Source: an uncultured Gammaproteobacteria bacterium (lineage in GTDB: Bacteria > Pseudomonadota > Gammaproteobacteria > JAKDMP01). Taken from it: a stretch of DNA of 64,000 bases. The position numbers were made by a program, and so were the translations under genes. Below are positions 43,615 to 61,732 of this stretch, one piece after another (the stretch's first letter is position 1; every line of letters starts with the position of its first letter). The notes under the pieces were generated by a model. It was given only the letters and a program-made list of their open reading frames with translations. It was not told where the DNA came from and did not search any database. Location of the stretch: assembly GCA_964586925.1 (NCBI GenBank), contig CAZPJI010000004.1, forward strand, positions 1,052 through 65,051, read 5' to 3'.

Positions 43615-43665
43615 AGGTCGCGCTGCCCCCTCGAATGGGGACGGTAATGGCCGGAGGGAAAGTGG

Positions 43666-44481
43666 TCAGGGCGGCAAAAGTGGTTCATGTGGCTTGGAAG
43701 ACAGTTGTCGTAAAAAATAATTTTCTAGGCCCCGTGTGGCCCGCCGCGCCATCCGAGATAAATCCTCGGAGGAGCCCCCGGCAAAGTCGGCAATGTCGCA
43801 AGGCGCACCAAAGCGTATCACAAGATGTACGCGCCTGTCGGGCATCCGGTACCAGGGATGGCCGTGGGTCAGCGCCGGCGGGTCGCAGTGGACCACAAGC
43901 GGCACAATGCGGAGTCCGGCACGCAGGGCTACCTGGGCCGCGCCGCGGCGGAAGCGCAGGGGCGCACCCGGGGTAGAGCGCGTGCCTTCGGGGAAGATCA
44001 GGATTGGCTCGCCTCGCGTGCTGGCCGCGCGGCAGGCCTCGATCAGTTTTTGCGGATCGTCGTTGTCGCAGGCGATGTAGCCGCCCAGTCGAGTGAACGG
44101 GAAAAACAGCGGGTGATTGAGCAGCGAGGATTTCATGACGCAATTTACGCGCGGAAGATGAGCCATGAGAAAGACGGCGTCGAGATAGCTCGGATGGTTG
44201 GCTACCAGCAGGCAACCCGCCAGATCCGGGATGCCGTCGCTGCGCACCTCGATGTCGGCCAAGCCGAAACCTTCGATCATGCGGATCAATAGGCGGAATC
44301 CCACACTGGCCAGCCCGCGAATCCGCTGCTCCCGCAAGCGGCGCGGCGTGACCAGCAACAGGATTGGCAATGGGACAAACAGGCCAAACAGGGCCACAAT
44401 GCCGAAAATGGCGAAGCCCAGGCCGGCGAGCGCACTGTGGCGCAGGCTCTCGATCCGGTTAAAGCCGTGTGTTTCCATCAA
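43666..44481 (-). CDS. PlsC-type acyltransferase (ApeD-like)
   Basis: VANHPSYLD, CVMK, IFPEGTRS, F.RGAA. Confidence 0.88.
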   Translation of the reverse strand: MMETHGFNRIESLRHSALAGLGFAIFGIVALFGLFVPLPILLLVTPRRLREQRIRGLASVGFRLLIRMIEGFGLADIEVRSDGIPDLAGCLLVANHPSYLDAVFLMAHLPRVNCVMKSSLLNHPLFFPFTRLGGYIACDNDDPQKLIEACRAASTRGEPILIFPEGTRSTPGAPLRFRRGAAQVALRAGLRIVPLVVHCDPPALTHGHPWYRMPDRRVHLVIRFGAPCDIADFAGGSSEDLSRMARRATRGLENYFLRQLSSKPHEPLLPP

Positions 44482-45371
44482 TGCGCCCAGTAATCGTAGA
44501 AATTGAACCAGTTATCGGGCGCATCCCGGGCATAGCGTTCCAGGCAGTCCACGTATTTTTGCGTTAACTGGTGAATGGCCTGTTCACGATCCGCTCGTCT
44601 TACCCGTTCGCCGGCGCACAGTTCTTCCAGATAAAGATCGTAACGATTACCACCCCGGTAAATGCCTGCGTAAAACAGGACCGGGCAGCCCAGGACCAGT
44701 GCGGCCTGCGTGACGCCGGTGGCGAAACGTGCCGGCTTGCCGAGGAAGGGCAGATCCAGAATGTGGGTATCGGACGGAGCCACGCGGTCGGAAAGTGCGG
44801 CTACAAAACTGCCTTTTTCTATCCGGTCGCTGAGCTGCATCAGTACGTCGGGAGATCCCAGGGGAATGCAGCGGCGCGCAAGGTCCGGATCCAACGTGGC
44901 AAAAGTCCGGGTAATGCGTGCATTGTGCTCGGGATAGAAAAGGATGTGTATGTCTAGGCCGGCCCGCTGCCGCGCCAGGGCACGCATGGCGAAAAAGCTG
45001 CCCATATGGGCACCCAGAAGGATTGCGCCCCGCCCCTGGTTTTGCAGGTCGAGGAGAGGTTCCGGGTTGTGGATGCGAATATCGAGTAGATCGGTACGGC
45101 TCGCCAGCAGATAGGTGCGATCCAAGGTAACCGCGGCAAAATTCCAGTAGGTTCGAGCCACATCCCGCCATTTTGGCGGGGCTGGTCGTGCCCGGCTCAG
45201 GAATTCCCGGACACTGCGCTGCTCGCTGCGCGTAACCAGCAGGAACCAGGCAACGGCGGGAAAGAGGCACAGGCGGGCCAGACGGCGGCCACCACGCAGC
45301 GCCGACAAACGCATGAAGGCGATCCACAGGCCGTTTCCGCGCTCCCGGCGTGTGCTCCAGTCGCCGCTCAC
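44478..45371 (-). CDS. LpxL/LpxP-like acyltransferase; GTG start 45371 inferred
   Basis: W....ERG, LLGAH.GSF, DR, FLG..A.F..G, P.NWFNFYDYW. Confidence 0.85.
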   Translation of the reverse strand: MSGDWSTRRERGNGLWIAFMRLSALRGGRRLARLCLFPAVAWFLLVTRSEQRSVREFLSRARPAPPKWRDVARTYWNFAAVTLDRTYLLASRTDLLDIRIHNPEPLLDLQNQGRGAILLGAHMGSFFAMRALARQRAGLDIHILFYPEHNARITRTFATLDPDLARRCIPLGSPDVLMQLSDRIEKGSFVAALSDRVAPSDTHILDLPFLGKPARFATGVTQAALVLGCPVLFYAGIYRGGNRYDLYLEELCAGERVRRADREQAIHQLTQKYVDCLERYARDAPDNWFNFYDYWAH

Positions 45372-46690
45372 GTCGGTTCCGGGGCTGGCGGCACGGCATG
45401 GCGGGAGACGATATCCAGCAAGTAGCTGCGTTGTAGCTTGCCGGTCCCGGTGCGCTCCAGGTGGGGGACGCAAATCAGGGGGCGCGGCATAAATATCGGA
45501 TCGATCAATCGTGCCAGACGGGTTCGTATATCCGCAGGCTGTAGACACGGCGCAACCACCACGGCGGCCAGGCGGGCATCGGCCTCGTCGGGGGCCACGA
45601 AGCTGCCCTCTTCCACGCCGTCTATGGACAAGAGGTGGTGATTCAGTTCCGCCAGCGAGGTTCTTTTCCCGGCGAGCTTGATCTGATCGCTGCTGCGGCC
45701 GAGCAGGATGAAGTGGCCGCCGGCTTCGATCTGCAAGCGGTCGGACAGTGGCCGGGGGCCGTCCAGATAGGGCGCATGTACCACGCAGCTCCCGTCCGAG
45801 GGTTCCAAGCTCACGTCGGCATACAGGGTCCAGGCAGAATCACGGCTCGTGCGCCGGCTGGCCAGCGCACCGGCTTCGCTGCAGCCGTAGATTTCGTGCA
45901 CAGCAGCGCCCAATCGGCTTTCGGCACGTGCCGCCAGGTCCGGATCCAGGGGGGCGGTGGCGCTTACGATCCCGGCCAGGTCCGGCCAGTCGAGTCCGGC
46001 GCGCAGACAGACATCGAGATGCAACGGTGTTGTGATGAGCACCCGGGGCGCCTCCAGTGCTTGCAGAGCCGCGCAGACATCGGCCGGATAAAGGGGGTGT
46101 CCGCTATGCACGACACCCGGCCCCAACAGGGTGTAGAGCACGCTGGATTCGAAGCCGTAGGAATGTTGCGCCGGCACCGTAGCGACAATCTGGTGCCCCG
46201 TCTTTTCAAGGGCAAATCGGTCCATGGCCCGTAATGTGACGCCATACAGCTCCTTCCAGGTCTTGGCCTGTGCCCGTGGTTCGCCCGTACTTCCCGAGGT
46301 AAAAAGAATGGCTGCCCTGTGACTGGACTCGATCAGGGGAGCGTCAGGGCTTTCCGTGGCGGATCCGATCGCATTCTCCAGGCCTTCAACCAGTTCGTCG
46401 TTTATTCGATAGGCTTCGTAACGGCGCGCGAGCGATTCGAGCATGCCGGGCGCTTGCCCCGGTGGCAGCAAGGCCGTTTGCCCGCGCATCAGCAGTGCGG
46501 CGAATGCCACCATGAAGTTGTAACGGTTCGCGCACATCAGGAGCGCATGGCGGCGATCCGGAAGTGCCCGCGCCAATGCCGCTGCGTGCTTCAAGTAGGC
46601 ACGGCGGGAGATCAGGCTACCTCTGTGCCAGGCCAGTGGAGCATCGTGTGGTGTGACGCCCAGCAGGGGGAGTAATTCGCGGTTGCTCAT
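45368..46690 (-). CDS. Acyl/aryl-ACP ligase (AMP-binding; XanA2-like)
   Basis: PLAW.....S...Y, C.NRY.F.V.FAA..MRGQ..LLPP, FTSGSTGEP, H.YGFE, EIYGCSEAG, KLAGKR.SL.ELN; ATG at 46690. Confidence 0.85.
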   Translation of the reverse strand: MSNRELLPLLGVTPHDAPLAWHRGSLISRRAYLKHAAALARALPDRRHALLMCANRYNFMVAFAALLMRGQTALLPPGQAPGMLESLARRYEAYRINDELVEGLENAIGSATESPDAPLIESSHRAAILFTSGSTGEPRAQAKTWKELYGVTLRAMDRFALEKTGHQIVATVPAQHSYGFESSVLYTLLGPGVVHSGHPLYPADVCAALQALEAPRVLITTPLHLDVCLRAGLDWPDLAGIVSATAPLDPDLAARAESRLGAAVHEIYGCSEAGALASRRTSRDSAWTLYADVSLEPSDGSCVVHAPYLDGPRPLSDRLQIEAGGHFILLGRSSDQIKLAGKRTSLAELNHHLLSIDGVEEGSFVAPDEADARLAAVVVAPCLQPADIRTRLARLIDPIFMPRPLICVPHLERTGTGKLQRSYLLDIVSRHAVPPAPEPT

Positions 46691-47361
46691 GGTCGGAACA
46701 AACGCAGAAAGTCGATATGGCGTATACGCGACCAATCGATGGGTTCGGCAGCCTTCAGTTCATTGCGCAGCCAGAATTGGCGGAAGAGCCACTCGCTCAG
46801 GAAAAAGCCGATCGGCAGTGCATAGGGAGCCACATTTATCCACCACCACCAGAAAGCCCCCGCGGGAATAAAAGCGACGGCGAACGTGATCAGACTCATC
46901 AGCGCCATAAGCACGGCCCAATACCAGGCCACGGCGCGGATGTAGGCACGTTCCCGGGGGCTGCGTTCCGGGCGAATCGTGCAGGCGATAAGCGTGATGA
47001 TATCGGTTTTCCCGGGCCGTAAGCCGCGCAGGAAAAGCCAGCTGATCAGGGCCTGGACGATGGCGGTCGTCAGGCTCAGCGCCGCGAGCGGGCCCTTGAG
47101 GGCGAACATGATGACGACCAGCACCAGATTGCACAAAGCCAACAGGAAGGCGGTCTTATTCCTTTCCAGCAGTCCCTGTGTGGCTCCCAGTACCAGCATC
47201 AGGACGAGCATCCAGGCTGCCGGGCGTGCATGCCCCGAGGCGGTGGCAAGGGCAACGAGCACGACATAGGCCAGCAGGAGCAGAACCCATGCCGCACCTA
47301 GAAGCTGGTGCAGTCTGTTTTGGGGGAGGCGGCGCTGCGGTTGAGCGTCATCGGGAGACAT
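46687..47361 (-). CDS. Membrane protein of aryl-polyene clusters (ApeG/COG4648-like)
   Basis: Multi-TM; Y.RAV..YW, W....N...Y, F..EW.FR. Confidence 0.7.
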   Translation of the reverse strand: MSPDDAQPQRRLPQNRLHQLLGAAWVLLLLAYVVLVALATASGHARPAAWMLVLMLVLGATQGLLERNKTAFLLALCNLVLVVIMFALKGPLAALSLTTAIVQALISWLFLRGLRPGKTDIITLIACTIRPERSPRERAYIRAVAWYWAVLMALMSLITFAVAFIPAGAFWWWWINVAPYALPIGFFLSEWLFRQFWLRNELKAAEPIDWSRIRHIDFLRLFRP

Positions 47362-47372
47362 GCGCGTAGCCG

Positions 47373-47651
47373 TCAGGCGTTTTCCGCCCGGCGAGCAGCG
47401 ATATAGGCGGCCAGTGCGCGCAGCGACCGGAAGGCCTCTCGATCCCGTTCGTTATCCGATTTCAGTTGTACGCCGTATTGTTTGGCTATAGCCAGAGACA
47501 ATTCCAGGGCATCGATGGAGTCCAGACCCAGGCCTTCACGGAACAGGCGCGCCTCGGGGTCGATGTCCTCGGCGGTTACATCTTCCAGTTCCAGTGCGGA
47601 CACGATCAGTTGCGCCACGTCCAGTTCAAAGTCGGTCATTTGTCCACTCAC
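47373..47651 (-). CDS. Acyl carrier protein (XanC/ApeE-like)
   Basis: IDPEA.LF.EGLGLDSIDALEL...I.KQYG. Confidence 0.92.
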   Translation of the reverse strand: MSGQMTDFELDVAQLIVSALELEDVTAEDIDPEARLFREGLGLDSIDALELSLAIAKQYGVQLKSDNERDREAFRSLRALAAYIAARRAENA

Positions 47652-47790
47652 CCGGGCCCTCGATGCCCTGTTTCTCAGCGAGATTATCCTATATTGTGTG
47701 ACACGGCTTGAAAAGCTCGTAAATTCGGCGATTTATCGCTAATATGCGCCCGGTTTGCCCGGTCTGTACGAATACAGCGGAGAAAGCGTG

Positions 47791-49131
47791 ATGAGGGATG
47801 AACAGGCGCAGGACGCCTTGAGCTGCGATGTGGCCGTTATTGGTGGAGGGCCTGCTGGCGCCGCTACAGCGGCCTTGCTGGCCCGCAAGGGGCGCGATGT
47901 CGTTGTGTTCGAGAAGGATCACCATCCCCGATTTCATATCGGCGAATCCCTGATCCCGCAAACCCTGCCGCTGCTGGAAAAGCTCGGCGTTCTGGATCAG
48001 GTGGACAAGACGGTCGGGTTGCTCAAGCCGGGTGCGAATTTCTACTCGGACACGCACCCCAACGTTCAGCAAACCTACTACTTCCGCGAGGCCTGGGACA
48101 AACAATGGCCCCATGCCTATGAAGTCAGGCGCAGCGAGTTCGACAAAATGCTCTTCGACAATGCCCAGGCATCTGGAGCACGCACCTTTGAGGGCGCACG
48201 GGTCGCTTCGGTGGACTTCGAAAGCGATGGCTCCAGCCGTGTCCAAGTGCGTCTCCGGAACGGCGAAGAGCAAAGCTGGACCGCCCGCTACGTAGTGGAC
48301 GCCAGCGGACGGGACACCATGCTGTCATCGAAGCACAAGCTCAAACGGAAGAACCGCCGCCACAACAGTGCGGCCATTTTTGGCCATTACCGTAACGTCC
48401 CGCGCCAGGAAGGCGAGGATGAGGGCAACATTACGGTTTACTGGTTCGAGCATGGCTGGTTCTGGCTCATTCCGCTAAAGGGCGGAATCATGAGCGTCGG
48501 GGCAGTGTGTTGGCCCGAATACCTCAAGACCCGCGATTGTTCGCCTGCGGAGTTTCTCGAACGGACCTGGAAGCTGTCACCCTCGCTCGGCAAGCGCATG
48601 GCGAATGCAGAACTCGAAGGCGAAGTCCGGGCGACCGGCAACTTCACCTACTTGTCCAAGGCCGCTGCCGGCAAGGGGTATTTGCTGGTCGGTGATGCTT
48701 TCGCGTTTCTGGACCCGGTGTTTTCCAGCGGCGTTCACCTGGCCTTGGCGGGGGCCTTCAAGGGTGCCGATACAGTGGATGCCATTCTCGACAATCCAGC
48801 CCGGGCACGAAAGCTGACGCGGGAATACGAACGTTACCTGCGCCGTGGCATGAAGGTATTCGCCTGGTTCATATATCGCTTCAATACACGCGCGCTGCAC
48901 AACCTGTTCATGTCGCCGCGAGACGTGCAACGAATGCCGGAGGCTGTCACCACGATGCTGGCCGGAGACGTGTTTCGCAAGACCCCGATACGCTGGCCGA
49001 TGTTCCTGTTCCGGCTGGTGTATTACGTCACTGCGCTCGCCAATTACCGCGCCAGTCTCGCATGGTGGTGGCGGAGGAGGCGCAACCTGCATGTGGTTAC
49101 CAGCGGCTCCACGCCCGCGGATTCCGGCTGA
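47791..49131 (+). CDS. FAD-dependent oxidoreductase, probable flavin-dependent halogenase
   Basis: GGGPAG, PRFHIGESL, LLKPGANF (conserved Lys), VDASGR, WFWLIP (WxWxIP), VGDAFAFLDPVFSSGV. Confidence 0.8.
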   Translation: MRDEQAQDALSCDVAVIGGGPAGAATAALLARKGRDVVVFEKDHHPRFHIGESLIPQTLPLLEKLGVLDQVDKTVGLLKPGANFYSDTHPNVQQTYYFREAWDKQWPHAYEVRRSEFDKMLFDNAQASGARTFEGARVASVDFESDGSSRVQVRLRNGEEQSWTARYVVDASGRDTMLSSKHKLKRKNRRHNSAAIFGHYRNVPRQEGEDEGNITVYWFEHGWFWLIPLKGGIMSVGAVCWPEYLKTRDCSPAEFLERTWKLSPSLGKRMANAELEGEVRATGNFTYLSKAAAGKGYLLVGDAFAFLDPVFSSGVHLALAGAFKGADTVDAILDNPARARKLTREYERYLRRGMKVFAWFIYRFNTRALHNLFMSPRDVQRMPEAVTTMLAGDVFRKTPIRWPMFLFRLVYYVTALANYRASLAWWWRRRRNLHVVTSGSTPADSG

Positions 49132-49141
49132 TCAAGCCGGG

Positions 49142-49939
49142 TCAGCCGGTTTGTTGGCAGTGAATTATCAGGTGCGATTCGTCCAGATAGGGTAGCCGGA
49201 TTTCTGCATCGGCTTGAGCGCACGCGAGTGCCGTGAGCAGCGGCAGGGCGCGGGCAGCCGGATTGCCCGTGCGCAACGCTTCAAGGTGGGGATCTGCGAG
49301 TGTCGACTCTTCGCCCCCCCTCTCCAGGCGCAAGGATAAGCCGGTCGACGCACCGTCCGGTTGCCGGCGCAGTAAGAGCGCACAGGCAAATTCGCCCTGG
49401 CCCGGGCGGGTCTTGTTGAGCGGCTCGGGCAGTGTCCGGTCATAGGCCACGAGCAGCACCGGTATGCCTTCGGCGGCCATGGTGGCTGCCTCGAGCAGTC
49501 CGGCGGAGAATGTGGCGTCGTGAGCCGCCACGGCAGTGTGGGGCGTCATGGCGTGTGCCGCGATGGACCAGTAGCCGGCCGGAGCGTTGTGCACGGAGTT
49601 GTGGAACTGGGTCGGCGATACGGCCGGCTCCGGTCTCGTCAGTTCCTCGCAGATCGCATGGATGATGTCACCGTCACCATTGCCGCTCGCAAACACAGTA
49701 GCCACTTGCCGGGCGTTTTCCGGGGAGCCGCCAAAGGCTTCTTCGGCGACGGCCAGGGCGAGGCGCATGGTGGTGGACAAGCGCCTTCTTTCATTGGCCG
49801 GCAGGCCCTGGGGGCTGAGTCTGGGCAAGGGCTCGGGTCGATAGGCTGCGGTGCCTGCAAGGCACTCCCGGGCCGTGGGCCAACCCACCAGGCCGGGCGC
49901 AGCGAAACCGATACCACTCGCCGTCAATCGCGTCATCAT
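49142..49939 (-). CDS. Beta-ketoacyl synthase chain-length factor
   Basis: ERRRLS....LAL, VFAS..GD, SPT.FHNSVHNAPAGYWSI, GLLEA, LVAYD; no catalytic Cys motif. Confidence 0.85.
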   Translation of the reverse strand: MMTRLTASGIGFAAPGLVGWPTARECLAGTAAYRPEPLPRLSPQGLPANERRRLSTTMRLALAVAEEAFGGSPENARQVATVFASGNGDGDIIHAICEELTRPEPAVSPTQFHNSVHNAPAGYWSIAAHAMTPHTAVAAHDATFSAGLLEAATMAAEGIPVLLVAYDRTLPEPLNKTRPGQGEFACALLLRRQPDGASTGLSLRLERGGEESTLADPHLEALRTGNPAARALPLLTALACAQADAEIRLPYLDESHLIIHCQQTG

Positions 49940-51141
49940 GCCGCCCGCCCCACGACAAGGCTTGCATTGCTACCGCCGAAACCGAAAGCATTCACCATGA
50001 TTCGGGAAACGGACTGTTTGCGGTTTTCCAGCACGATATCGGCATCGATGACCGGATCCACGCGGCGCGTGTTGAGGCTGGCCGGGACAAGGCCGTGTTC
50101 CAGTGCCAGAGCGGCGATACCGAAACCCATGATTCCTGCGGCGCCCAGTGTGTGCCCGCACCAGCCTTTGGTCGAACTGCTGGCCTGGCCTGGCCCGAAC
50201 ACTCGGCGCAAGGCGAGATCCTCGGCCTTGTCATTGGCCGGTGTTCCGGTACCGTGAAGATGAACCCAATCGATGTCGGTGGGATTTAGCCCGGCGCGGT
50301 CAAGTGCAGCCTGCATGGCCAGGGCCGCGCCGGCGCCTTCGGGATGCGGCGCCGACATGTGATGGGCGTCACCGCTTTCGCCGAATCCCATCAGTATGGG
50401 CGATTCTTTACCCTCAGAGGCATCCGGCCATTCCAGCAGCGCAAAGCCGGCGGCTTCCCCGAGATTGATGCCGTCCCGCTCCGCATCCGCCGGGCGGCAG
50501 GGCGAGGTGCTGACCAGTTGCAGGGAATGAAAACCATACAGAGTCATCAGGCACAGGCTGTCAACGCCGCCAACCAAGGCGGCTTGGCAAAGGCCGGCCT
50601 GCATATAGCGTGCAGCGGTTGCGAAGACTTTGGCGCTTGAGGAGCAGGCGGTCGACACGGCCAGGGCCGGGCCGGACAATCCCAGGGTTTTACGCACGAA
50701 AGCCGGCAGGGTAAACATATCCTGACTGTGGCTATAGGAAAACCACTCGGGAAGTTCGCCCGTAGCTTGGCGTTCCCGATAGGCACACTCGGTCAACTCG
50801 ATGCCACTGGTGCTGGTGCCCAGGAAAACGCCGATATTCCCCGCGCCATAGCGCTCCCGCAGGCGCAGGCATTCGTCCTGGAAGCCATCCTCGTTCAACG
50901 CCATATGCGCCAGGCGGTTATTGCGGCAATTCCAGGCCGACAGATTGTCCGGCAAGCGATATTCGTCGAGATCAGCAACGCGCCCGATCCAGGTATCAAG
51001 TTTCACGTGAGGGTGATCGCACCGGGTGAGGCCTCCACGATTGTTGCGCAGAGCATCGAGGGTAGCGGCACGGCCACGGCCAAGCGCGCTGGTAATGGTC
51101 CAGGCAGAGGCGATCAAGGGGTGCATGGGTGAAAGATTCAT
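49936..51141 (-). CDS. Beta-ketoacyl-ACP synthase (ApeO/XanK-like); start uncertain (51141 or 51126)
   Basis: SALG.G, RNN.L, LGTSTSG, STACSSSAK (Cys), HLHGTGT..ND, KGWCGHTLGAAG, NAFGFGG.N. Confidence 0.9.
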   Translation of the reverse strand: MNLSPMHPLIASAWTITSALGRGRAATLDALRNNRGGLTRCDHPHVKLDTWIGRVADLDEYRLPDNLSAWNCRNNRLAHMALNEDGFQDECLRLRERYGAGNIGVFLGTSTSGIELTECAYRERQATGELPEWFSYSHSQDMFTLPAFVRKTLGLSGPALAVSTACSSSAKVFATAARYMQAGLCQAALVGGVDSLCLMTLYGFHSLQLVSTSPCRPADAERDGINLGEAAGFALLEWPDASEGKESPILMGFGESGDAHHMSAPHPEGAGAALAMQAALDRAGLNPTDIDWVHLHGTGTPANDKAEDLALRRVFGPGQASSSTKGWCGHTLGAAGIMGFGIAALALEHGLVPASLNTRRVDPVIDADIVLENRKQSVSRIMVNAFGFGGSNASLVVGRAA

Positions 51142-51206
51142 GGGTCGCAAGGACTAATTTTAACCAGTACCGCTACTATGACACGACTTTCAGGAGAAAA
51201 TGCTCA

Positions 51207-51767: not shown

Positions 51768-52148
51768 TTACCGGGGCGGGAATCCGCCACCGCTCAGCTT
51801 GGAGCTTTCCTGCCCGGGGACGACAATGGAGGACGCCTGCTCGCGGCGCAATTCACGCAATTCTTCCATGGTCTGCTCAAGCGCTTCGCGCGCGGCTTCG
51901 GGGTACCGCTCGAGGGCCTCGGAGAAGGTTTCGGCCTTGATTTCGAAACTCAGCGGCAACGTACCCGCCGGGGTCATCAGGCTTGTGGAGCCCTCCCAGA
52001 CCGCCGGCCGGCTGGGATCGTCGGAGCCGTCGGCATGGATCGGCAGCAGTTTGCGCAGAGTTCCCATCCGCCGGTCGGTGTAGGTTTCTTCCCGGTAAAG
52101 ATGTCCGCTGTCCAGGCGGATTTCGGGCATTTCGGTGCTATCGGCCAT
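51768..52148 (-). CDS. Hypothetical protein, probably conserved
   Basis: Good codon usage; LYREETYTDRR.G.LR.L.P, TP.G.LPLSFEI.A and C-terminal helix ending SIVVP. Confidence 0.65.
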   Translation of the reverse strand: MADSTEMPEIRLDSGHLYREETYTDRRMGTLRKLLPIHADGSDDPSRPAVWEGSTSLMTPAGTLPLSFEIKAETFSEALERYPEAAREALEQTMEELRELRREQASSIVVPGQESSKLSGGGFPPR

Positions 52149-52172: not shown

Positions 52173-53267
52173 ATGGTTCAGGATAACAGCGCCATTGAGC
52201 TAAAGTCAGCACTCATGGAGGACAAAATGCCCTCGCACGCACCGCAAAGCGCAGCCGTGTGGGAGCCGGACGCGGCGATTCCCAACACGCTGCGCGTGCC
52301 CGCGCGTGCCCGTAGCCTGGTACGCCTGCGGAATGCGGACAACCTGCCGGAAGTCCTGGATGCAGCACAAGCGGCGGGTTTGCCCTTGTTTGTTCTCGGC
52401 GCGGGAAGCAATATTTTATTCGTCGGCGATTTTCCGGGCACCGTCTTGCAGTTGGCAACGCGCGGCATCGAGGAAACGGACCAGGGCCGGATCCGCGTCG
52501 CGGCCGGGGAGTCCTGGGATGGTTTCGTGCGCTGGTCTCTCGAGGCGGGATACGCAGGTCTGGAAAACCTGATCCTGATTCCGGGTACCGTGGGTGCTGC
52601 ACCGGTTCAGAATATTGGCGCCTACGGCGTCGAGTTGTCGGAGTTTGTCTCCAGGGTAGAAGCCTGGGACCGGCAGGCATCGCGGCGCGTGACATTGGGG
52701 CCGGATGACTGTGCCTTTGCGTACCGTGATTCGGTTTTCAAACGCGACGTCGAGCGTTACATTATTACGCACGTCGAGTTGGTGTTGTCCCGGCGACGCG
52801 CCCTGTGTCTGGATTATCAAGGTGTGCAGGAGGCGTTGGAATCCCTGGGCGTGCGCGAGCCCACGGCGTTTGACGTGGCCCGGGCAGTGGAGCGGTTACG
52901 TTTGCGCAAGCTGCCCGACCCTCAAATGATCGCCAACGCGGGCAGCTTTTTCAAAAACCCGGTGGTCAGCGAACAGGAGGCGCAACGCTTGCGTTCACAG
53001 TATCCCGATCTACCCAATTATCCGCAGCCACCGGACGGCGGCGTAAAGTTGTCGGCCGCCTGGTTGATCGAGCAATGCGGGATGAAGGGCGTGCGCCGGG
53101 GCGATGCCGGGTTGTATGCAGGCCATGCCCTGGTATTGGTCAATCATGGGCAGGCGACGGGTCCTGAACTACTGGCCCTGGCCCGGGAGGTGCAGGCGAC
53201 AGTGACCAAGCGCTTCGGGGTGACTTTGCAGCCGGAACCTCGGATCGTGCCGGCGGTATCCTCCTGA
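52173..53267 (+). CDS. murB: UDP-N-acetylenolpyruvoylglucosamine reductase (start may be 52227)
   Basis: LGAGSN.LF, GLENLILIPGTVGAAPVQNIGAYG, FAYRDSVFK, NAGSFFKNP, KLSAAWLIE, HALVLVN, LQPEP. Confidence 0.96.
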   Translation: MVQDNSAIELKSALMEDKMPSHAPQSAAVWEPDAAIPNTLRVPARARSLVRLRNADNLPEVLDAAQAAGLPLFVLGAGSNILFVGDFPGTVLQLATRGIEETDQGRIRVAAGESWDGFVRWSLEAGYAGLENLILIPGTVGAAPVQNIGAYGVELSEFVSRVEAWDRQASRRVTLGPDDCAFAYRDSVFKRDVERYIITHVELVLSRRRALCLDYQGVQEALESLGVREPTAFDVARAVERLRLRKLPDPQMIANAGSFFKNPVVSEQEAQRLRSQYPDLPNYPQPPDGGVKLSAAWLIEQCGMKGVRRGDAGLYAGHALVLVNHGQATGPELLALAREVQATVTKRFGVTLQPEPRIVPAVSS

Positions 53268-54865
53268 TGGAATTGCCGGGCATCATGGACAGTCATCTGA
53301 TCTGCGCCACTTACCGCGTGCAGGGAACGGCTGCGGAAGCGGCCCGGATCGCGCGGGCCGTTATTTACGAGCAAACCGTGGAATTACCCCCGGCGCAGGT
53401 TGCAGGCACTCCTGCCGAGGCGTGCGTTGGACACGTCGAGGCGATTATCCCCGACCCCGAGCAGGGGGGGGCGCAGCGGGTGCACATCGACTTTCCGGTC
53501 GACCTTGCCTGCGGCCAACTGGGTCAGTTATTCAACCTGCTGTATGGAAACATCTCCATGTATCGCGGTATCCGGCTGCTCGATGCCAATTTGCCGGCTT
53601 CGTTGCTGACCGATTGGCATGGCCCACGCTACGGAAGTGACGGCTTGCGCAGATTGACGGGAGTCCATGGCCGGCCGCTTCTGGCTACGGCCGTGAAACC
53701 GCGAGGCCTTCCGCTCGCGGAACTCGCTGCATTGGCGGGAGCCTTTGCGCTGGGCGGCGGGGATGTAGTCAAGGACGATCAAAACCTGGTGCATAGGGAT
53801 TTCGACGGTTTCCGCGCCCACGTCGATGCCTGCGCTGACGCTGTCGACCAGGCCAATGCGGCCACGGGCCGACGCTGCCTCTACCTCCCGCACCTGTCAG
53901 GCCCGGACCCGGAGCTGGAACGCCGCGCAGAGTACATACAGCAACGCGGCCTCGCCGGGGCTCTGCTGTGCCCCCTGGTGCTGGGACTGGATCGTGCCCG
54001 CGCACTGGCCGAACGTTACCAATTGCTGTTCATGGCGCATCCTGCCCTGTCCGGTGCTTACACCAATGGCCAGCAGGAAGGTATTTCGCACGCGGTGTTG
54101 CTGGGTACTTTATTCCGCATGGCTGGTGCGGATATCTCCGTTTTTCCCTCGCCCGGCGGGCGATTCGATGTGAACTACGATGATTGCAAGAGCATCGCAA
54201 CGGCATTGCAAGATCCGTTGGGCGGACTGGCCAGTGCTTTGCCCTCACCTGGCGGCGGCTTGCACACGGAGCAGGTCGAGGATTTGGCCCGGTGTTACGG
54301 CACGGAAGCGGTGTGGTTGCTGGGCGGTTCGCTCCACGGCGCAGCAGGCGGGATCGAAGCAGGCACGCGGCGTTTGCTGGATGCCATGAAAACGCATTTC
54401 GAAGAGCGGCTGGAAGAACCGGAAGCGGCGTGGATGTCAGCCTGTGAATTGCCCGCCAGCGGCGCAAGCGCGGATGTGCGCAAATTATTGCCGGTATCCG
54501 ATGACTTCAATTGGGCGGCGCGTGAAAATCAGCGCTATAAGACCAGCGGGAATTTGCCTTTCCAGGGAGTGCGTAGAGTCGAGTTGGTCGGCAAACAGGG
54601 CGAGCCGTGCAGTTTCGAGTTGCGGTATTTTGAACTGGAGCCCGGCGGCTACACCAGCCTCGAAAAGCATGTGCATACGCATGTATTGATCGGCGCTCGT
54701 GGCGAGGGCCTCGTGATCATGGACGAGGAGCGATTGGCGTTGAAGCCTGACGATATCGCCTACGTTGCGCCCCTGCAGGTTCACCAGCTCCGCAACGAAT
54801 GTGATCAGCCCTTCGGCTTCTACTGCATTGTCGATAAGGACAGGGATCGCCCGATGGCGCCTTGA
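53267..54865 (+). CDS. RuBisCO-like protein (form IV) fused to C-terminal cupin
   Basis: EQTVE, GPRYG..GLR, RPLL.T.VKP.G, GGGDVVKDDQ, LFRMAGAD...FP..GGRF, P.PGGG; cupin YFELEPGGYTSLEKHVHTH...LRN...PFGFYCIVD..RDRP. Confidence 0.88.
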   Translation: MELPGIMDSHLICATYRVQGTAAEAARIARAVIYEQTVELPPAQVAGTPAEACVGHVEAIIPDPEQGGAQRVHIDFPVDLACGQLGQLFNLLYGNISMYRGIRLLDANLPASLLTDWHGPRYGSDGLRRLTGVHGRPLLATAVKPRGLPLAELAALAGAFALGGGDVVKDDQNLVHRDFDGFRAHVDACADAVDQANAATGRRCLYLPHLSGPDPELERRAEYIQQRGLAGALLCPLVLGLDRARALAERYQLLFMAHPALSGAYTNGQQEGISHAVLLGTLFRMAGADISVFPSPGGRFDVNYDDCKSIATALQDPLGGLASALPSPGGGLHTEQVEDLARCYGTEAVWLLGGSLHGAAGGIEAGTRRLLDAMKTHFEERLEEPEAAWMSACELPASGASADVRKLLPVSDDFNWAARENQRYKTSGNLPFQGVRRVELVGKQGEPCSFELRYFELEPGGYTSLEKHVHTHVLIGARGEGLVIMDEERLALKPDDIAYVAPLQVHQLRNECDQPFGFYCIVDKDRDRPMAP

Positions 54866-54917: not shown

Positions 54918-56069
54918 ATGAGAAACAAGCGCAAAGCGGTATCGGTCGGCCGGCTCGCCCGGCAATCACGTGTGGCCTTCGTACGCTCCTCACGCCGGCT
55001 GTTGGGTACCTACCACCGCCCCGGTACGGCACCGGGGACACTGGAATACAGGGTGGAACCGGGTGAACCGCCACGGCCGCCGGCCCGCCTCACCCTATAC
55101 CGCTTTGACGCCGAGCGCGTGGAGGAACAGGTCGACGCGACGGTCGACGACTGCAAGCCCTCGGCCAAGCCGGGCGAAGTAACCTGGTTGCAGGTGGAAG
55201 GCGCCCCGACCCCCGAGTTGATGGCCGAGCTGGGCCTGGCTTTCGATCTGCACCCCCTGGCCATGGAGGATGTCATGGGTCATGGGCAAAGGAGCAAGTT
55301 CGAGGCCTATGAGAGCCAGTATTTCGTGGTACTCAACAAACCCCGCCGGGACGCGGAGGGTGCCTTACATACTTCCCAGTGCAGTTTTTTCCTGGGAGCA
55401 AACTACGTCATCTCCTTTGACGAGAGCGACGGCGATACCTTTGCACCGATCAAGGCGCGGCTGCAAACCAAGCGAATGTTTCGCGAGCGCGGCGCCGATT
55501 ACCTGTTTTACTCACTCCTCGACGTGGTGATCGACGAAGGATTTCCGCTGTTGGAGGATTTCGGCGAACGCATGGATGTGCTGGAAGCAGACGTGCTCGA
55601 GGCGCCCACCCGGGAGTTACGCAACCAGATTCATTACATGAAACAGGAACTGGTGGAGCTGCGCCGTGCCTGGTGGCCACAGCGCGACGTAATCAATACC
55701 CTGCTGCGTGATGGCGAGCAGATGATCAGCGAAACCACGCGCCTGTACCTGCGTGATACCTATGATCATTGCGCTCGCATCATCGATCTCGTGGAGATGT
55801 ATCGGGAAATGGCTTCGAGCCTTCTCGACACCTACCTGTCGAGCGTCAGCCAGCGCATGAACGATATCATGAAAGTGCTGACCATCATTGCCACGATATT
55901 CATGCCGCTCACCTTCATAGTGGGCGTCTATGGTATGAACTTCGATACCGCGAGCCCCTGGAACATGCCCGAGCTGCATTGGCGCTACGGCTATTTCTAT
56001 GCGCTGGGCGTCATGCTCGTAATCGCCGTTGCCATGCTGGCGTATTTCCGCCGCAAGCGCTGGCTGTGA
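54918..56069 (+). CDS. corA: CorA Mg/Co transporter
   Basis: PGTAPGTL, LHPLAMED...QR.K.E, GADYLFY.LLD, SQRMN.IMKVLT, YGMNF, MPEL.W.YGY. Confidence 0.95.
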   Translation: MRNKRKAVSVGRLARQSRVAFVRSSRRLLGTYHRPGTAPGTLEYRVEPGEPPRPPARLTLYRFDAERVEEQVDATVDDCKPSAKPGEVTWLQVEGAPTPELMAELGLAFDLHPLAMEDVMGHGQRSKFEAYESQYFVVLNKPRRDAEGALHTSQCSFFLGANYVISFDESDGDTFAPIKARLQTKRMFRERGADYLFYSLLDVVIDEGFPLLEDFGERMDVLEADVLEAPTRELRNQIHYMKQELVELRRAWWPQRDVINTLLRDGEQMISETTRLYLRDTYDHCARIIDLVEMYREMASSLLDTYLSSVSQRMNDIMKVLTIIATIFMPLTFIVGVYGMNFDTASPWNMPELHWRYGYFYALGVMLVIAVAMLAYFRRKRWL

Positions 56070-56467
56070 ACCCGACGCGCGCCAGCCTGGCGCGTGCCTA
56101 CGAGAGCGCGGTGTATGTCGCGGAACTCCCCGCTGGACGGGTTGAGTTCCGTCTTCACGCCAGACACCGGGGGCGGCCACCGGGCAGTCCCCTGGCCATC
56201 ATAACGGCGTGGAATCCGGGCGTTGAGCGTCCCTCAGAAACGGCCAACAAGGAGGCCAACCTGCGCTTGGAGAGTGCGCTCAAGGAAGCGCGCTGGCCCT
56301 ACTATCCTGCCATTGGCCGCAGCGAAGATGGCTCGCACACGGAACCCTCTTACGCGGTATTGGGCATCGATCCCGCCGCGGCCATGGATCTGGCTCGCAA
56401 CTTCAGGCAAGCCGCCGTTTTTTTCTGGGACGGCAAACAATCGAGACTGCTTTGGTGTGATGAATGA
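56066..56467 (+). CDS. DUF3293-like protein
   Basis: AY....Y, IITAWNP, N..AN..L, EPSY, A..F.Q.A.F; GTG overlapping the corA stop. Confidence 0.75.
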   Translation: MNPTRASLARAYESAVYVAELPAGRVEFRLHARHRGRPPGSPLAIITAWNPGVERPSETANKEANLRLESALKEARWPYYPAIGRSEDGSHTEPSYAVLGIDPAAAMDLARNFRQAAVFFWDGKQSRLLWCDE

Positions 56468-57033: not shown

Positions 57034-57825
57034 CTATCCCATCGGAATGAAAAGCAGCAGGGCGATGCCGAGCAGGATGCGGTAGATCGCAAACGGTGTG
57101 AAGCGGTGCGTGCGGATATAGCCGAGTAACCATTTCACGGCGATGAAAGCCACAATCAGAGACACTATGAAACCGACGGCAAGCGCGCCCCAATGCGTTT
57201 GCGATACATCGTGGTGATGCACGGTCTTGAACAGTTCGTAACCGGTGGCGGCGTACATGGTCGGTATGCCGACCAGGAACGCAAATTCAGTTGCTGCGGA
57301 GCGGTCGCTGGTGCCGAACAACATGGCAGCGAAGATGGTCGATGCCGAGCGTGAGGTGCCGGGGAAGATACCGGCCACCATCTGGGCAATGCCGACGAGT
57401 ATGGCTACGCGCCAAGTGATCCGCGTGCTTGGTGGTCGACGCGCGGCGATCTGCTCGGCAGCAATCATCCACACGCCGCCGATGATCAGGGCCCAGGCTA
57501 TCGGGCCGATGTTCTTGGGCAGTTTGAAACCGAGTTCTACCGCGACCAGGCCAATAACGGACGTAATCAGGAATGCCACGATGAGCTTGAGGAGATAGTC
57601 GCGGGTCTCGGGCTCGCGCCAGCGGGTCAGGAAATCCCACAGGCGGCGGCGGTAAATCAGCGTGATGGCGAGGATGGCGCCGGCCTGGATGCCTACGTTG
57701 AATAGGTCGGAGCGGGCGCCTAGCCAGTGTTCTGCGATCAGGAGGTGTCCGGTACTGGAAATGGGGAGAAACTCGGTGATGCCCTCGATGATGCCCAGAA
57801 GGACAACGTTGAACAGATCGTGCAT
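57034..57825 (-). CDS. uppP: Undecaprenyl-diphosphate phosphatase
   Basis: LGIIEGITEFLPISSTGHL, IQAGAILA, FPGTSRSASTI, EFAFLVGIP, F..YRI. Confidence 0.95.
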   Translation of the reverse strand: MHDLFNVVLLGIIEGITEFLPISSTGHLLIAEHWLGARSDLFNVGIQAGAILAITLIYRRRLWDFLTRWREPETRDYLLKLIVAFLITSVIGLVAVELGFKLPKNIGPIAWALIIGGVWMIAAEQIAARRPPSTRITWRVAILVGIAQMVAGIFPGTSRSASTIFAAMLFGTSDRSAATEFAFLVGIPTMYAATGYELFKTVHHHDVSQTHWGALAVGFIVSLIVAFIAVKWLLGYIRTHRFTPFAIYRILLGIALLLFIPMG

Positions 57826-58059: not shown

Positions 58060-59709
58060 TCAGGCCATCTGTGACCGAGAGGCGGAAGGTGTTTTTCGCC
58101 CTTGCCAGTGTGCGATCTTCTCAGCAGGCAACGGTTCGCTAATGGCGAATCCCTGCAGTGCGTCGCAACCTAGGCGCGGGAGGCGGGCCGCCACTTCCGA
58201 ATTCTCCACGCCTTCGGCCGTGACATGCAAATCGAGGGCGTGGGCCAGCTGGATAATGGCGTTGAGCAGTACCTCGCCATCTGTACCGCGTGCCATGTCG
58301 GCGACGAACATGCGGTCTATCTTGATGCTGCTGACAGGCAACCTGCGTAGATAGGCAAGAGAAGAATATCCGGTGCCAAAATCGTCTATGGATGTTTGTA
58401 CGCCGAGTTCCGACAGGCGTGTGATCGTATCGTAGGCACGTTCCTGATCCGTCAGCAATGTAGTTTCTGTCATCTCCAGGGTCAATGCGTTTTTCGGCAG
58501 CTTGAAGGAGGCCAGCATCCCGGAGACGGTATTGGCGAATTCGGGATCGAGCAGACTGGCCGCGGTGACATTGACCGAGACGCTCAGTTCCTTGCCCGCA
58601 TCGTGCCAGTCGGCCATGTCGCGCAGCGCCTCCCTCAGGACCCAGCTGGTGAGTTCGCGGATGAATCCACTGCGTTCCGCGAGAGGGATGAACTCGTCGG
58701 GCAGAAGCATGCCGTAGCGTTCATGCTGCCAGCGGACCAGCGCCTCTACACTTCTCAGTTTCCCGGTATGTGCATCAACGATGGGTTGGTACTGCAACAC
58801 CAGTTCCTTGCGTTGGAGGGCTTGGCGCAGTTCACCCAGCAGGATGAGTCGATGCGGGCTGGATTTGTCCTGCTCCGGCGAATACAGGGCATACCCGCTG
58901 CGGTCCTTCTTGGCCCAGTACATGGCCACTTCCGCGCGCTGCATCAGTGTGTCCGCATCGCGGCCATGGGCGGGGAAGCAGGTGGCGCCGATGCTGGCGG
59001 CCAGCGACAAGCTCAGCCCTTCCAGCGCGTAGGGTGCTTCCAGGGCCTTGCGGATGGCCTTGACGGTGGAGAGGATATCCGCCTCCTTTCTCAGCCGAGG
59101 CAGGATCAGTCCGAATTCGTCGCCGCCGAGGCGGGCCACGGTCACCGAATCGCTGACCGCATTACGGATCCGTGTCGCAACGCTTTTTAATACACGGTCG
59201 CCGCTATGGTGGCCCAGTGAGTCGTTGATTTCCTTGAAGTGGTCCAGATCCAGGAGGAGTATCGCCACTTCAATCTTTTCAGTGTTGGCCAATTGCAGCG
59301 CCTGTTCGAGGCGGTCAACGAAAAGTACTCGATTGGGCAGATCCGTGAGCTGGTCGTGGGTGGACTCGTGCGAGATGCGCTTTTCAAGCGCAACGGTTCG
59401 GCTGCGCAGATCGGTGGTTTGATCCATGACCATAGCGCCGGCTTCGTAAGCGATCACAGTGCTGGTGTATTGTCCCCAGAAGCCGAATATGAAAGGTGTT
59501 GCATCCAGCAACCAAAGCACGGGGTTGGTAGCCTGGGCGTGGATGATGCTGGCAAGCGTCAGTTCATAGTGGTTGCTGAAATAAGCGCTGAGCAGCGTTG
59601 CGACCACAACGGTAATACTGGCAATGATGGTGCCGATGATGGCCTGTTTGGAGACTTTGCTGCGGAGAAGCCGTACATTCTCCTGAAATATTTGTTTTGC
59701 GGTCAGCAT
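58060..59709 (-). CDS. Membrane-anchored diguanylate cyclase/phosphodiesterase
   Basis: HDQLTDLPNR, DLDHFKEIND..GH..GD, RLGGDEF, LQYQP, EALVRW, DDFGTGYSSL, IKID, AEGVE, QGF. Confidence 0.93.
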   Translation of the reverse strand: MLTAKQIFQENVRLLRSKVSKQAIIGTIIASITVVVATLLSAYFSNHYELTLASIIHAQATNPVLWLLDATPFIFGFWGQYTSTVIAYEAGAMVMDQTTDLRSRTVALEKRISHESTHDQLTDLPNRVLFVDRLEQALQLANTEKIEVAILLLDLDHFKEINDSLGHHSGDRVLKSVATRIRNAVSDSVTVARLGGDEFGLILPRLRKEADILSTVKAIRKALEAPYALEGLSLSLAASIGATCFPAHGRDADTLMQRAEVAMYWAKKDRSGYALYSPEQDKSSPHRLILLGELRQALQRKELVLQYQPIVDAHTGKLRSVEALVRWQHERYGMLLPDEFIPLAERSGFIRELTSWVLREALRDMADWHDAGKELSVSVNVTAASLLDPEFANTVSGMLASFKLPKNALTLEMTETTLLTDQERAYDTITRLSELGVQTSIDDFGTGYSSLAYLRRLPVSSIKIDRMFVADMARGTDGEVLLNAIIQLAHALDLHVTAEGVENSEVAARLPRLGCDALQGFAISEPLPAEKIAHWQGRKTPSASRSQMA

Positions 59710-59839: not shown

Positions 59840-61591
59840 TCATTCCGGCTGGCTCAGCACCCGGGCGCGTGCGGTAATGTCGGCCCCTGCCAGCTTGCCG
59901 TTGGCCACCGCAGACACAAAGCGTGCATTCTCACGGGCGTGCAGGGCATGCATGGCGCTGCCAACCTCGTGCACGAGATGGGCAAGCAGTTCCCGCTCGT
60001 CGGGTGGAAAATGTTCACCGGGCCGGTTGGCCAGCACGATGGCACCCAGGAGGTCTCCGCGCACGGTCATCGGCAACAGCAGTCCGTCATTGCCCAAGTC
60101 GCTGCTGAGATTCTCAAGATCCGTTTCCGAGCGTTCGGAACGCAGAGCGACAAAAGCCCGGTCGTCTATGCTCATTGTCAGGGGATAAGACAGTATGCCG
60201 CTGGTGGCGATACGCCGGTAGGCGTCCCGCTCCTGCCAATAGAATGCCGCGGCGGGGGCAGCCGTGTGAGTGCACAGCTCGCGCAGTGTCTGTTCGAGCA
60301 GGTGATCGGGGTTTTCTATGTAGGCGCATTGACGCGCGAAGGCGCGGAGTGCGTTTTCGTTCTTGAATTTTTGCCGGAATAAAAAACGTTCGCTGATACT
60401 TTCCAGGCGTTTGCGTATGGCTTCCAGCGAGAATCCGATAATCAAGGGAACTGCGAGTTCAAGCGCAAGGCTTTCTTTCTCCGATATGGCAAGCTTCTCA
60501 AGAAAGCTCTCCAACAAAATGAAAATACCGACAACGAAGGTCAAGGTGGCGCTGTACACGATCGCCCGATTGATAACGAATGACATGTCGACCACGCGAT
60601 GCCGCAATACCGAATAGAGCAGTCCTGAAAATCCGAAGAAATAGGCCAGGATTTCAACCAGATTGGATAAGGGATAGCCCAGTAGCGGCGCATTGCTTAG
60701 CAGGATGCCGAGCACCATGATTACCGCGCTCCAGAACATCCAGCGCAAGCGGGGTTTCCAGTCGGGTTGTGCATTGTGAAAGCCGACCAGAAGCAGCACT
60801 GTTGCGATGACATAGGGCAAATCCCAGAGTACGGAGGCGATCTGGGGGATCAGGATTGCCCCGTAGACAAAGGTCAGAACCGATGACACTTCATAGGCGT
60901 AGCCGAGCAGCAACGTAGCCAGGAAGACATAAATGAACGTGCGTCGGCTGGTCGAGCCCAACGCGGGCCCTGCTATGGCAAAGGCCATGACGAAAAAGCC
61001 GACGCGGGCGACCAGATAGCAAATTTGCGATGCAAAGCCGAGACCAAAACCCAGTTGGTCTGACGCGGGAGCCAGGTTAAAGGCCATGCCGAATTGGAAC
61101 GCAATGGCCCAGATTGCAATGCCCCATGCTGCCCGGTCCCGGCCGCGCCACAACGTAATCAGGATGATCAGGCATGAGAGAATCGACCAGGCGATACCCA
61201 GATAGCTCATGCTTCGCATTGCCGGATCCGTGCCCAGCGGCTGTATGGAAACGCGGATATGACGCAATTGCCCGTCTTTGAGTGTCACGACCAGTGGCAG
61301 GGCATGCCCCTGGCGGATGTTGTTCATGTCGATGCTGGCGAGCAAGTCCATACGGGCAGTTGTGCTCTGATGCGCAAAATCGACACGGTCTCCAGCGTGC
61401 AATCCTGCGGGCATCGGCAGACTGTGCAGGTGGGCGATGCGAGCGTGATGAGGCGAGATGTTCTCGAGCGCCAAGGGCACACCGGACAATTGCGTAAAGA
61501 GCACGCAATTCCACCCCGTAAGAACGACGACGAACAGGCTGATCAGAGCGAGTAACGGATAGTGGCGATTTTGTACGTGCATGCCATATGC
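59840..61591 (-). CDS. Multi-TM membrane protein with PDZ-like periplasmic loop and C-terminal GAF-like domain
   Basis: TM1, AGLHAGDRV, then about 8 TM helices, YSVLRHRVVD, ERFLFR, GAF-like LLPMTVRGDLLGAIVLA..F..DE.ELL; start uncertain (61591 or 61627). Confidence 0.7.
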   Translation of the reverse strand, partial: AYGMHVQNRHYPLLALISLFVVVLTGWNCVLFTQLSGVPLALENISPHHARIAHLHSLPMPAGLHAGDRVDFAHQSTTARMDLLASIDMNNIRQGHALPLVVTLKDGQLRHIRVSIQPLGTDPAMRSMSYLGIAWSILSCLIILITLWRGRDRAAWGIAIWAIAFQFGMAFNLAPASDQLGFGLGFASQICYLVARVGFFVMAFAIAGPALGSTSRRTFIYVFLATLLLGYAYEVSSVLTFVYGAILIPQIASVLWDLPYVIATVLLLVGFHNAQPDWKPRLRWMFWSAVIMVLGILLSNAPLLGYPLSNLVEILAYFFGFSGLLYSVLRHRVVDMSFVINRAIVYSATLTFVVGIFILLESFLEKLAISEKESLALELAVPLIIGFSLEAIRKRLESISERFLFRQKFKNENALRAFARQCAYIENPDHLLEQTLRELCTHTAAPAAAFYWQERDAYRRIATSGILSYPLTMSIDDRAFVALRSERSETDLENLSSDLGNDGLLLPMTVRGDLLGAIVLANRPGEHFPPDERELLAHLVHEVGSAMHALHARENARFVSAVANGKLAGADITARARVLSQPE

Positions 61592-61732
61592 CGGTATTCC
61601 GGTTGCCGGAAAGCATAACCCAACCACTCTGTCGGGGAGCAGCTGCAGTCGAGCCCGACGTTGGGGGCATTATCCGCAGGGCCCTGGGGAAACCAGGAGC
61701 GGGCGCCGTACAACGTGTGGTTTGGGATGTGT

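Follow-up and report, generated by a model that had tools for sequence, protein, structure and literature searches.

In Rhodospirillum rubrum, the founding pair of the shunt that connects 5′-methylthioadenosine (MTA) to isoprenoid synthesis consists of Rru_A1998, a protein resembling ribulose-1,5-bisphosphate carboxylase/oxygenase (RuBisCO), and Rru_A2000, a cupin-type 1-methylthioxylulose-5-phosphate methylsulfurylase (PMC4958253). Rru_A1998 is a RuBisCO-like protein (RLP) of the DeepYkr clade and acts as a 5-methylthioribulose-1-phosphate 1,3-isomerase. The RLP1 protein (RPA2169) of Rhodopseudomonas palustris and its neighboring cupin (RPA2170) perform both steps in vivo (PMC5893883). In these two organisms, as in Meiothermus, Nitrococcus and Halorhodospira, the RLP and cupin genes are separate and adjacent (PMC4958253). 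Here we describe a stretch of 64,000 nucleotides (the window) from contig CAZPJI010000004.1 of an uncultured gammaproteobacterium, in which a single gene encodes an RLP followed by a cupin in one polypeptide.

The fusion protein unites the same two families as the R. rubrum pair, in the order of the pathway steps. The R. rubrum proteins are separate, whereas a flexible linker some 19 residues long connects those of the window, and R. rubrum is an alphaproteobacterial phototroph, whereas the present host is uncultured and its fusion is known by sequence. In R. palustris, RPA2169 (rlp1) is followed by RPA2170 (cupin), so that the genes stand in the same order as the domains of the fusion. These genes are likewise separate, however, and the R. 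palustris RLP structure 3qfw is 39% identical to the RLP half and carries the motif KDDH in place of KDDQ. A precedent for joining consecutive enzymes of methionine salvage exists in MtnBD and MtnAK of Tetrahymena (PMC3698126; PMC6302742), although these involve unrelated families and steps and are eukaryotic. No description of an RLP-cupin fusion was found in the full-text literature searched, which lacked Erb 2012, Warlick 2012 and Tabita 2007. Relative to the known shunt, the novelty appears to lie in the joining into one polypeptide and in the range of hosts, since the families and their reactions are already known. The fusion introduces no new chemistry, and would not surprise a specialist.

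Architecture and affiliation of the fusion protein

The layout of the gene is as follows, with residues numbered along the 532-residue translation and all features on the + strand.

53267..54865, +: whole fusion gene (RLP, linker, cupin), an uninterrupted open reading frame (ORF) of 532 amino acids plus stop with an ATG start
53288..53626, +: N-terminal alpha/beta domain of the RLP, residues ~8-120 (AlphaFold2 confidence score, pLDDT, above 90; alignment with 3qfw from residue 8)
53627..54421, +: C-terminal TIM-barrel catalytic domain of the RLP, residues 121-385 (Pfam PF00016; 3qfw at 225 bits; Foldseek)
54422..54478, +: interdomain linker, residues 386-404 (poor conservation, predicted disorder)
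54479..54862, +: methylsulfurylase-type cupin, residues 405-532 (3ibm, 3jzv and 3kgz aligned end to end)
53549-53551, +: N95 of the RLP, Asn at the position of a YkrW-enolase Lys
53696-53698, +: K144 of the RLP, motif AVKPRG (residue table)
53771-53782, +: K169-D-D-Q172 of the RLP, motif VVKDDQN (residue table)
54662-54682, +: E466-x-H468-x-H470-x-H472 of the cupin, in the cupin barrel
54782-54787, +: H506-Q507 of the cupin (cupin alignment)

A preliminary description of this DNA had claimed a single ORF in which a form-IV RLP is joined to a cupin, and this is borne out by Pfam matches to RuBisCO_large (residues 128-289, E 4e-24) and to Cupin_2 (residues 454-521, E 3e-9) on the same 532-residue polypeptide. 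The motifs that it quoted are all located in the translation of 53267-54865, which holds AVKPRG, VVKDDQN, RYFELEPGGYTSLEKHVHTH and RNECDQPFGFYCIVDKDRDRPMAP. The cupin motif RYFELEPGGYTSLEKHVHTHV occupies residues 453-473, and LRNECDQPFGFYCIVDKDRDRPMAP lies at the C-terminus. Both domains are folded with confidence in an AlphaFold2 model (mean pLDDT 86), wherein the RLP part (residues 8-385) mostly exceeds 90 and the cupin barrel scores 86-92.

A sequencing or assembly error, or a frameshift, might in principle have joined two neighboring genes. Nothing was found in favor of this explanation, though rlp and cupin genes do adjoin in known systems, and we give it practically no probability. One Logan and one JGI contig, independently assembled, both encode the identical 532-residue protein, and the continuous architecture is shared by homolog clusters that number more than 150 and reach down to 35% identity. 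Because the ORF recurs unchanged on two assemblies and its architecture recurs in homolog clusters, a frameshift or assembly artifact is excluded as the origin of the fusion.

Among solved structures in the Protein Data Bank, the RLP half is most similar to 3qfw (225 bits, E 1e-65, residues 12-361). The YkrW/MtnW enolases score at most 148 bits, form III RuBisCOs at most 126, RLPs of the Photo clade (1tel, 1ykw and 2qyg) at most 93, and 3nwr 61. Foldseek also ranks 3qfw first for the AlphaFold2 model, with a template modeling score of 0.92-0.93 normalized to the target. The structure is labeled there as 'Rubisco-like protein from Rhodopseudomonas palustris', and 2qyg is labeled as R. palustris rlp2. 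R. palustris has two RLPs, RLP1 (DeepYkr, RPA2169) and RLP2 (Photo) (PMC5893883), so 3qfw is by elimination RLP1.

Sequence identity discriminates poorly between the candidate clades (39% to 3qfw versus 34% to the YkrW enolase 2oek), and the separation from YkrW was therefore tested directly with a neighbor-joining tree. In a bootstrap analysis of 51 RLP domains (the full tree has 137 taxa), 2oek and one YkrW-like representative were separated in 100 of 100 replicates from every short RLP, with 3qfw and the window protein among them. The YkrW/MtnW enolases of Bacillus subtilis (2zvi) and Geobacillus kaustophilus (2oek) form a sister RLP clade with the same RuBisCO-large fold and the same carbamyl-Lys/Asp metal motif, and they also use an MTA-derived sugar phosphate, in canonical methionine salvage. 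In the residue table, however, Asn95 of the window protein aligns with a Lys of 2oek that we take to be the catalytic Lys98 of YkrW enolases, a residue reportedly described by Imker in 2007. K169-D-D-Q172 stands where YkrW and RuBisCO have KDDE, G297-G-R-F300 corresponds to YGSV in YkrW, and H258-P259 replaces the HR of RuBisCO. The residues N95, K144, KDD[H/Q], HP and GGRF are common to the window protein and 3qfw but not to 2oek, and among these 3qfw differs only at position 172, where it has H. About 90% of 135 clade members carry N95, KDD[H/Q] and GGRF.

Curated models give a concordant result. The MtnW models NF007095 and TIGR03332 score 210 and 152.5 bits against cutoffs of 409 and 513.6, and the form III, form I/II and PRK04208 RuBisCO models score 41-151 bits against cutoffs of 438-497. 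The RLP half has the RuBisCO fold, and its active-site substitutions (KDDQ and H258-P259) together with its failure to reach RuBisCO thresholds indicate that it is not a bona fide carboxylase. Tree, residues and scores support its membership in the DeepYkr clade of form IV of the RuBisCO superfamily. This agrees with the clade anticipated in the preliminary description, as the protein groups with R. palustris RLP1 and a placement in YkrW came out negative. The replacement of KDDE by KDDQ, to which that description also drew attention, is present but not special to the fusion. Position 172 is Q in 18 and H in 21 fused proteins, and Q in 13 and H in 79 unfused ones. Because the two residues alternate in both groups, KDDQ is ordinary variation within the clade.

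Three standalone cupins align with the cupin half (residues ~401-532) over its whole length, through its last residue: 3ibm at 112 bits, 3jzv, labeled 'uncharacterized protein Rru_A2000', at 78 bits (E 6e-21, residues 28-159 of the query segment), and 3kgz at 69 bits. The next cupin, TM1459, reaches 39 bits. Identity is ~35% to Rru_A2000 and 48% to 3ibm. We take 3kgz to be the R. palustris cupin RPA2170 and 3ibm to be a cupin of Halorhodospira halophila. If so, 3ibm, the closest solved cupin, is gammaproteobacterial like the window host, although it is a standalone protein and biochemically uncharacterized. The H. halophila cupin sits with an RLP in an R. rubrum-like organization according to North et al. 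2016.

Thirty-three signature positions were defined as those at least 90% conserved across 43 fused cupins, and Rru_A2000 shares 27 of these and the generic cupin TM1459 shares 12. Among the family-specific positions in common with Rru_A2000 are W416 and Y424-K425 of an N-terminal extension, R453-Y-F-E456, E466-x-H468-x-H470-x-H472, D496, H506-Q507, G517-F-x-C520 and R526-D527-x-P529 at the C-terminus. E466, H468, H470, H472 and H506 do not vary across the 43 fused cupins, and 3jzv, 3kgz and 3ibm have them too. Four of them (E466, H468, H472 and H506) seem to occupy the positions of the Mn ligands of TM1459, which we take to be His52, 54, 58 and 92. No acireductone dioxygenase (ARD, MtnD) family occurs among the Pfam matches of the fusion protein at E <= 0.1. 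These comparisons identify the cupin half as a full-length member of the Rru_A2000 methylsulfurylase family, the type to which it had been assigned from its motifs.

Recurrence and evolution of the fusion

An exhaustive HMMER search of 1.84 billion representatives at 50% identity gave 2129 matches at E <= 1e-3. Among the best 150 of these, 37 have an RLP followed by a cupin (a second cupin is present in two), 111 have an RLP only (mostly 365-395 residues) and two have split RLP matches; the order cupin-then-RLP was found in none of the 150. All 120 listed clusters at 90% identity are RLP-then-cupin. In each of them phmmer found both halves, with at least 86% of the query covered (at least 95% in 118), and precomputed annotation places both Pfam domains in 116.

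The linker is the least conserved segment, with the lowest conservation and with insertions and deletions at residues 381-400. Its pLDDT is below 50 for residues 391-404, it is predicted to be disordered, and in 153 homologs its length has a median of 18 residues and extremes of 8 and 203. The domains on either side behave differently: 35 fusions at 49-92% identity keep every one of the residues named above, wherein E35-Q36, E39 and N95 are invariant. Across orthologs the cupin is conserved no less than the RLP, with cupin/RLP identities of 79/69%, 73/67%, 70/62% and 59/52%. Both domains are, judging from these alignments, under constraint.

The neighbor-joining tree intersperses fused RLPs with unfused ones. 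The closest unfused RLPs, P0135 (54% identical) and P0139 (47%), are complete genes with convergent downstream neighbors. This interleaving, together with the lack of a cupin remnant beside the closest unfused RLPs on the short contigs examined, means that the architecture has been gained or lost more than once. A recent fusion of adjacent genes in this sub-lineage was also considered but could not be documented, as the closest unfused RLPs lack a downstream cupin.

Other arrangements occur in the same clade. The 726-residue protein P0149 has an Inositol_P domain (residues 91-294) ahead of its RLP (residues ~359-718), and this fusion to the inositol-monophosphatase family suggests a phosphatase-coupled variant of RLP chemistry. 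P0154, P0195 and P0222 (620-705 residues) and P0144, P0147, P0160, P0145 and P0217 are further architecture variants. Some clade RLPs have ~300 extra N- or C-terminal residues with no Pfam match, some RLP-cupin fusions have inserts of 100-200 residues between the domains, and tandem cupins are present in P0145 and P0217.

Putative function and rival readings

We consider it likely that the fusion is a bifunctional 5-methylthioribulose-1-phosphate isomerase/methylsulfurylase, in which case the one gene would cover both of the steps that characterize the MTA-isoprenoid shunt. From the observed architecture, clade, conserved residues, fold and recurrence we infer the substrates, products, metal, thiol and kinetic benefit of the following scheme. 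By analogy with RuBisCO-family chemistry, the RLP domain would bind 5-methylthio-D-ribulose-1-phosphate at a Mg2+ site on carbamylated K169 with D170/D171. It would then move the carbonyl via enediolate intermediates to give 1-methylthio-D-xylulose-5-phosphate and, to some extent, the ribulose epimer; the isomerase of R. rubrum yields a 3:1 mixture (PMC5893883). The cupin, tethered by the ~19-residue flexible linker, would take this alpha-thio-ketone at a metal site formed by E466, H468, H472 and H506, with H470 nearby. Glutathione-mediated reductive C-S cleavage would release DXP (1-deoxy-D-xylulose-5-phosphate) and S-methylthio-glutathione, from which methanethiol would be freed and recaptured by O-acetylhomoserine sulfhydrylase. 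Thiol cleavage and methanethiol chemistry of this kind have been described for the enzymes of R. rubrum and R. palustris (PMC5893883).

Fusion would fix a 1:1 stoichiometry and proximity of the two activities, and could shift the equilibrium of the isomerase in favor of the productive epimer. Because the linker is flexible and variable in length, tethering is favored over a fixed tunnel, and the benefit is more likely to be stoichiometry and proximity than a sealed channel. The channeling of the intermediate that had been proposed earlier finds no support in a rigid interface, given a linker predicted to be disordered and spanning 8 to about 200 residues among homologs.

Several points weigh against a shunt function. 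The assignment is made by homology, at moderate identity to characterized enzymes (35% for the cupin with Rru_A2000 and 39% for the RLP with 3qfw), and RLP clades other than YkrW, such as Photo, were compared by bit score outside the tree. Family scans of 40 ORFs found no mtnP, mtnA, mtnK or met17 in the 64-kb window, and none of these lies within 10 kb of the fusion in four other lineages. No run of RNA sequencing holding the fusion gene was found. On the short contigs examined, neither a cupin gene nor a remnant of one is present near P0135 (contig L011) or P0139, and P0139 lies directly downstream of a gene for a short-chain dehydrogenase/reductase (SDR) and near one for an Ldh_2-family dehydrogenase (L012 1941-3870). 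This context hints at another, uncharacterized function within the DeepYkr-like clade, which would then not be functionally uniform. Membership in the RLP clade is by itself no guarantee of shunt function, and the best clue to function is the methylsulfurylase-type cupin fused to the RLP. The absence of partner genes is uninformative alone, because mtnA and mtnP of R. rubrum (Rru_A0360/0361) are also unlinked to Rru_A1998/2000 (PMC4958253). The earlier suggestion of a single-polypeptide MTA-isoprenoid shunt does go too far: the fusion unites two steps of that pathway, and a search of the window for mtnP, mtnA and an O-acetylhomoserine sulfhydrylase gene returned none.

Some of these same observations would suit an enzyme with similar chemistry that acts on another pentulose phosphate, derived from 5′-deoxyadenosine or from another thio-sugar of sulfidic salt-marsh sediment. 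Identities of only 35-39% to characterized enzymes, Q rather than H at position 172 relative to 3qfw, the lack of a nearby mtnA or mtnP, the other gene contexts of the closest unfused RLPs and the salt-marsh habitat all fit such a substrate. The protein nonetheless retains every residue specific to the methylsulfurylase cupins and to the DeepYkr RLPs, the pairing of an RLP with a cupin is the hallmark of the known shunt, and the unlinked mtnA and mtnP of R. rubrum deprive their absence of much meaning. We regard a different substrate as unlikely on this balance. The cupin could instead be a noncatalytic domain, similar to AraC-binding domains, that senses a ligand or promotes oligomerization and so regulates the RLP isomerase. 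Weak Pfam matches to AraC_binding (E 0.017) and MannoseP_isomer (E 0.012) and the flexible linker are compatible with such a role, but both matches fall below gathering scores, and none of the 43 fused cupins departs from the metal-binding E/H residues or from the methylsulfurylase signature. A merely regulatory cupin, at least as conserved as the RLP half, seems very improbable to us.

The best NCBIfam names for the protein are MtnW models, and MtnD, the acireductone dioxygenase of methionine salvage, is also a cupin. These facts could be read as a 2,3-diketo-5-methylthiopentyl-1-phosphate enolase of the MtnW type joined to an MtnD-type dioxygenase. This combination is scarcely credible and was rejected on the shortfall against both MtnW cutoffs, on Asn95 and KDDQ in place of the Lys and KDDE of YkrW, and on the unanimous bootstrap split. 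The lack of a Pfam ARD match at the threshold given above, together with nearest cupins of the Rru_A2000 type, also speaks against it.

Gene neighborhood, host and significance

The fusion gene lies between murB and corA, in the following surroundings.

51768-52148, -: ORF of 126 residues divergent from murB, no Pfam or NCBIfam match
52227..53267, +: murB, UDP-N-acetylmuramate dehydrogenase, 346 residues (NCBIfam NF000755, 389 bits)
54918..56069, +: corA, Mg/Co transporter (TIGR00383, 331 bits)
56066..56467, +: DUF3293 gene overlapping the corA stop, a conserved neighbor (Pfam PF11697; L004 and L006 gene tables)
57034-57825, -: uppP, undecaprenyl-diphosphate phosphatase, 2 kb downstream of the fusion gene
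58060-59709, -: GGDEF-EAL cyclic-di-GMP protein
59840-61627, -: GAF-domain protein

The TGA stop of murB overlaps the ATG of the fusion gene (TGATG), and corA starts 52 nucleotides after the fusion-gene stop with no terminator-like site between them in a terminator scan; corA and the fusion gene are probably in the same operon. The order murB, fusion, corA, DUF3293 is repeated in a relative at 63% identity, ~10 kb from dnaA/dnaN/recF/gyrB, versus ~16-23 kb in the window. More distant fusion genes have unrelated neighbors, and no recurrent metabolic partner was seen beside four of them. The small ORF at 51768-52148 is conserved in position in L004/L005 and L006/L007 (126-130 residues). A divalent-cation transporter gene directly follows the fusion in two lineages: in the window and in L006/L007 it is corA, and in L008 (11569-12741) it is a CDF cation-efflux gene that overlaps the fusion-gene stop. 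These transporters may have to do with the metals that the two domains require, or their position may be a coincidence. Rfam at gathering thresholds gave nothing in the window (no tRNA, rRNA, riboswitch or other curated RNA), and a relaxed scan of 51.0-57.2 kb gave one chance-level match and no riboswitch.

A more elaborate proposal builds on these neighbors. A fused oligomer would pass 1-methylthioxylulose-5-phosphate straight from the active site of the RLP to that of the cupin, providing a route to DXP independent of Dxs. Cotranscription with murB and corA, with uppP 2 kb away, would then tie salvage of the S-adenosylmethionine by-product to undecaprenyl phosphate for peptidoglycan. We hold this to be quite improbable.

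Farther upstream, the window includes the chromosomal replication-origin region (30486-39283), with a minimum of cumulative GC skew at about 36-40 kb, and a lipid/polyketide-like gene block of ~12 kb between yidC and murB (39309-51150).

15638-17452, -: ORF of 604 residues, no Pfam match at E <= 1e-6
20684-22234, +: ORF of 516 residues, no Pfam match at the same threshold
22241-23299, +: ORF of 352 residues, no Pfam match at the same threshold
30486-32915, -: gyrB
32963-36717, -: recF, dnaN and dnaA ORFs (matched by size and synteny with L006)
37568-39283, +: yidC
39309-40547 and 49936-51150: two beta-ketoacyl synthases of the lipid/polyketide-like block
47755-49131: flavin-dependent halogenase-like protein of the same block

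The block also encodes an SDR/FabG-like reductase, a GT2 glycosyltransferase, two acyltransferases and an AMP-binding enzyme, and may be an aryl-polyene-type or specialized-lipid cluster; the relative L006 has a MatE gene in its place. The 604-residue ORF adjoins an MlaD/MlaE/ABC transporter cluster (17418-20557).

The nearest named relatives of the window GyrB, from Thioalkalivibrio, Thiohalobacter and Thiosocius, are 67-68% identical. Closer GyrB relatives (73-81% identity) are apparently on contigs that carry fusion homologs (432329, 498271, 101755 and 72354 bp). Because these relatives apparently share contigs with fusion homologs, vertical inheritance of the fusion gene near the replication origin is suggested for this lineage. 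A genome-collection scan found three close relatives of the fusion protein in metagenome-assembled genomes (MAGs), and the sequence occurs in salt-marsh metagenomes. The named carriers are 'Gammaproteobacteria bacterium' and 'Xanthomonadales bacterium' MAGs. Database copies are numerous under generic names, so the guess that such fusions might already be on record in Gammaproteobacteria was correct: many MAG proteins have this architecture, all of them generically named.

If the isomerase/methylsulfurylase assignment is correct, it would provide a basis for renaming entries now called 'RuBisCO large subunit C-terminal-like domain-containing protein'. It would also offer a compact single-gene module from 5-methylthioribulose-1-phosphate to DXP for structural work on active-site cooperation, and one useful for engineering Dxs-bypass routes to isoprenoids. 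In the Rosetta-stone sense, the fusion would independently confirm that DeepYkr RLPs work with Rru_A2000-type cupins. Methanethiol is an important sulfur currency in marine and salt-marsh sediments, and the shunt would reach beyond a few cultured phototrophs into many uncultured Gammaproteobacteria that live there.

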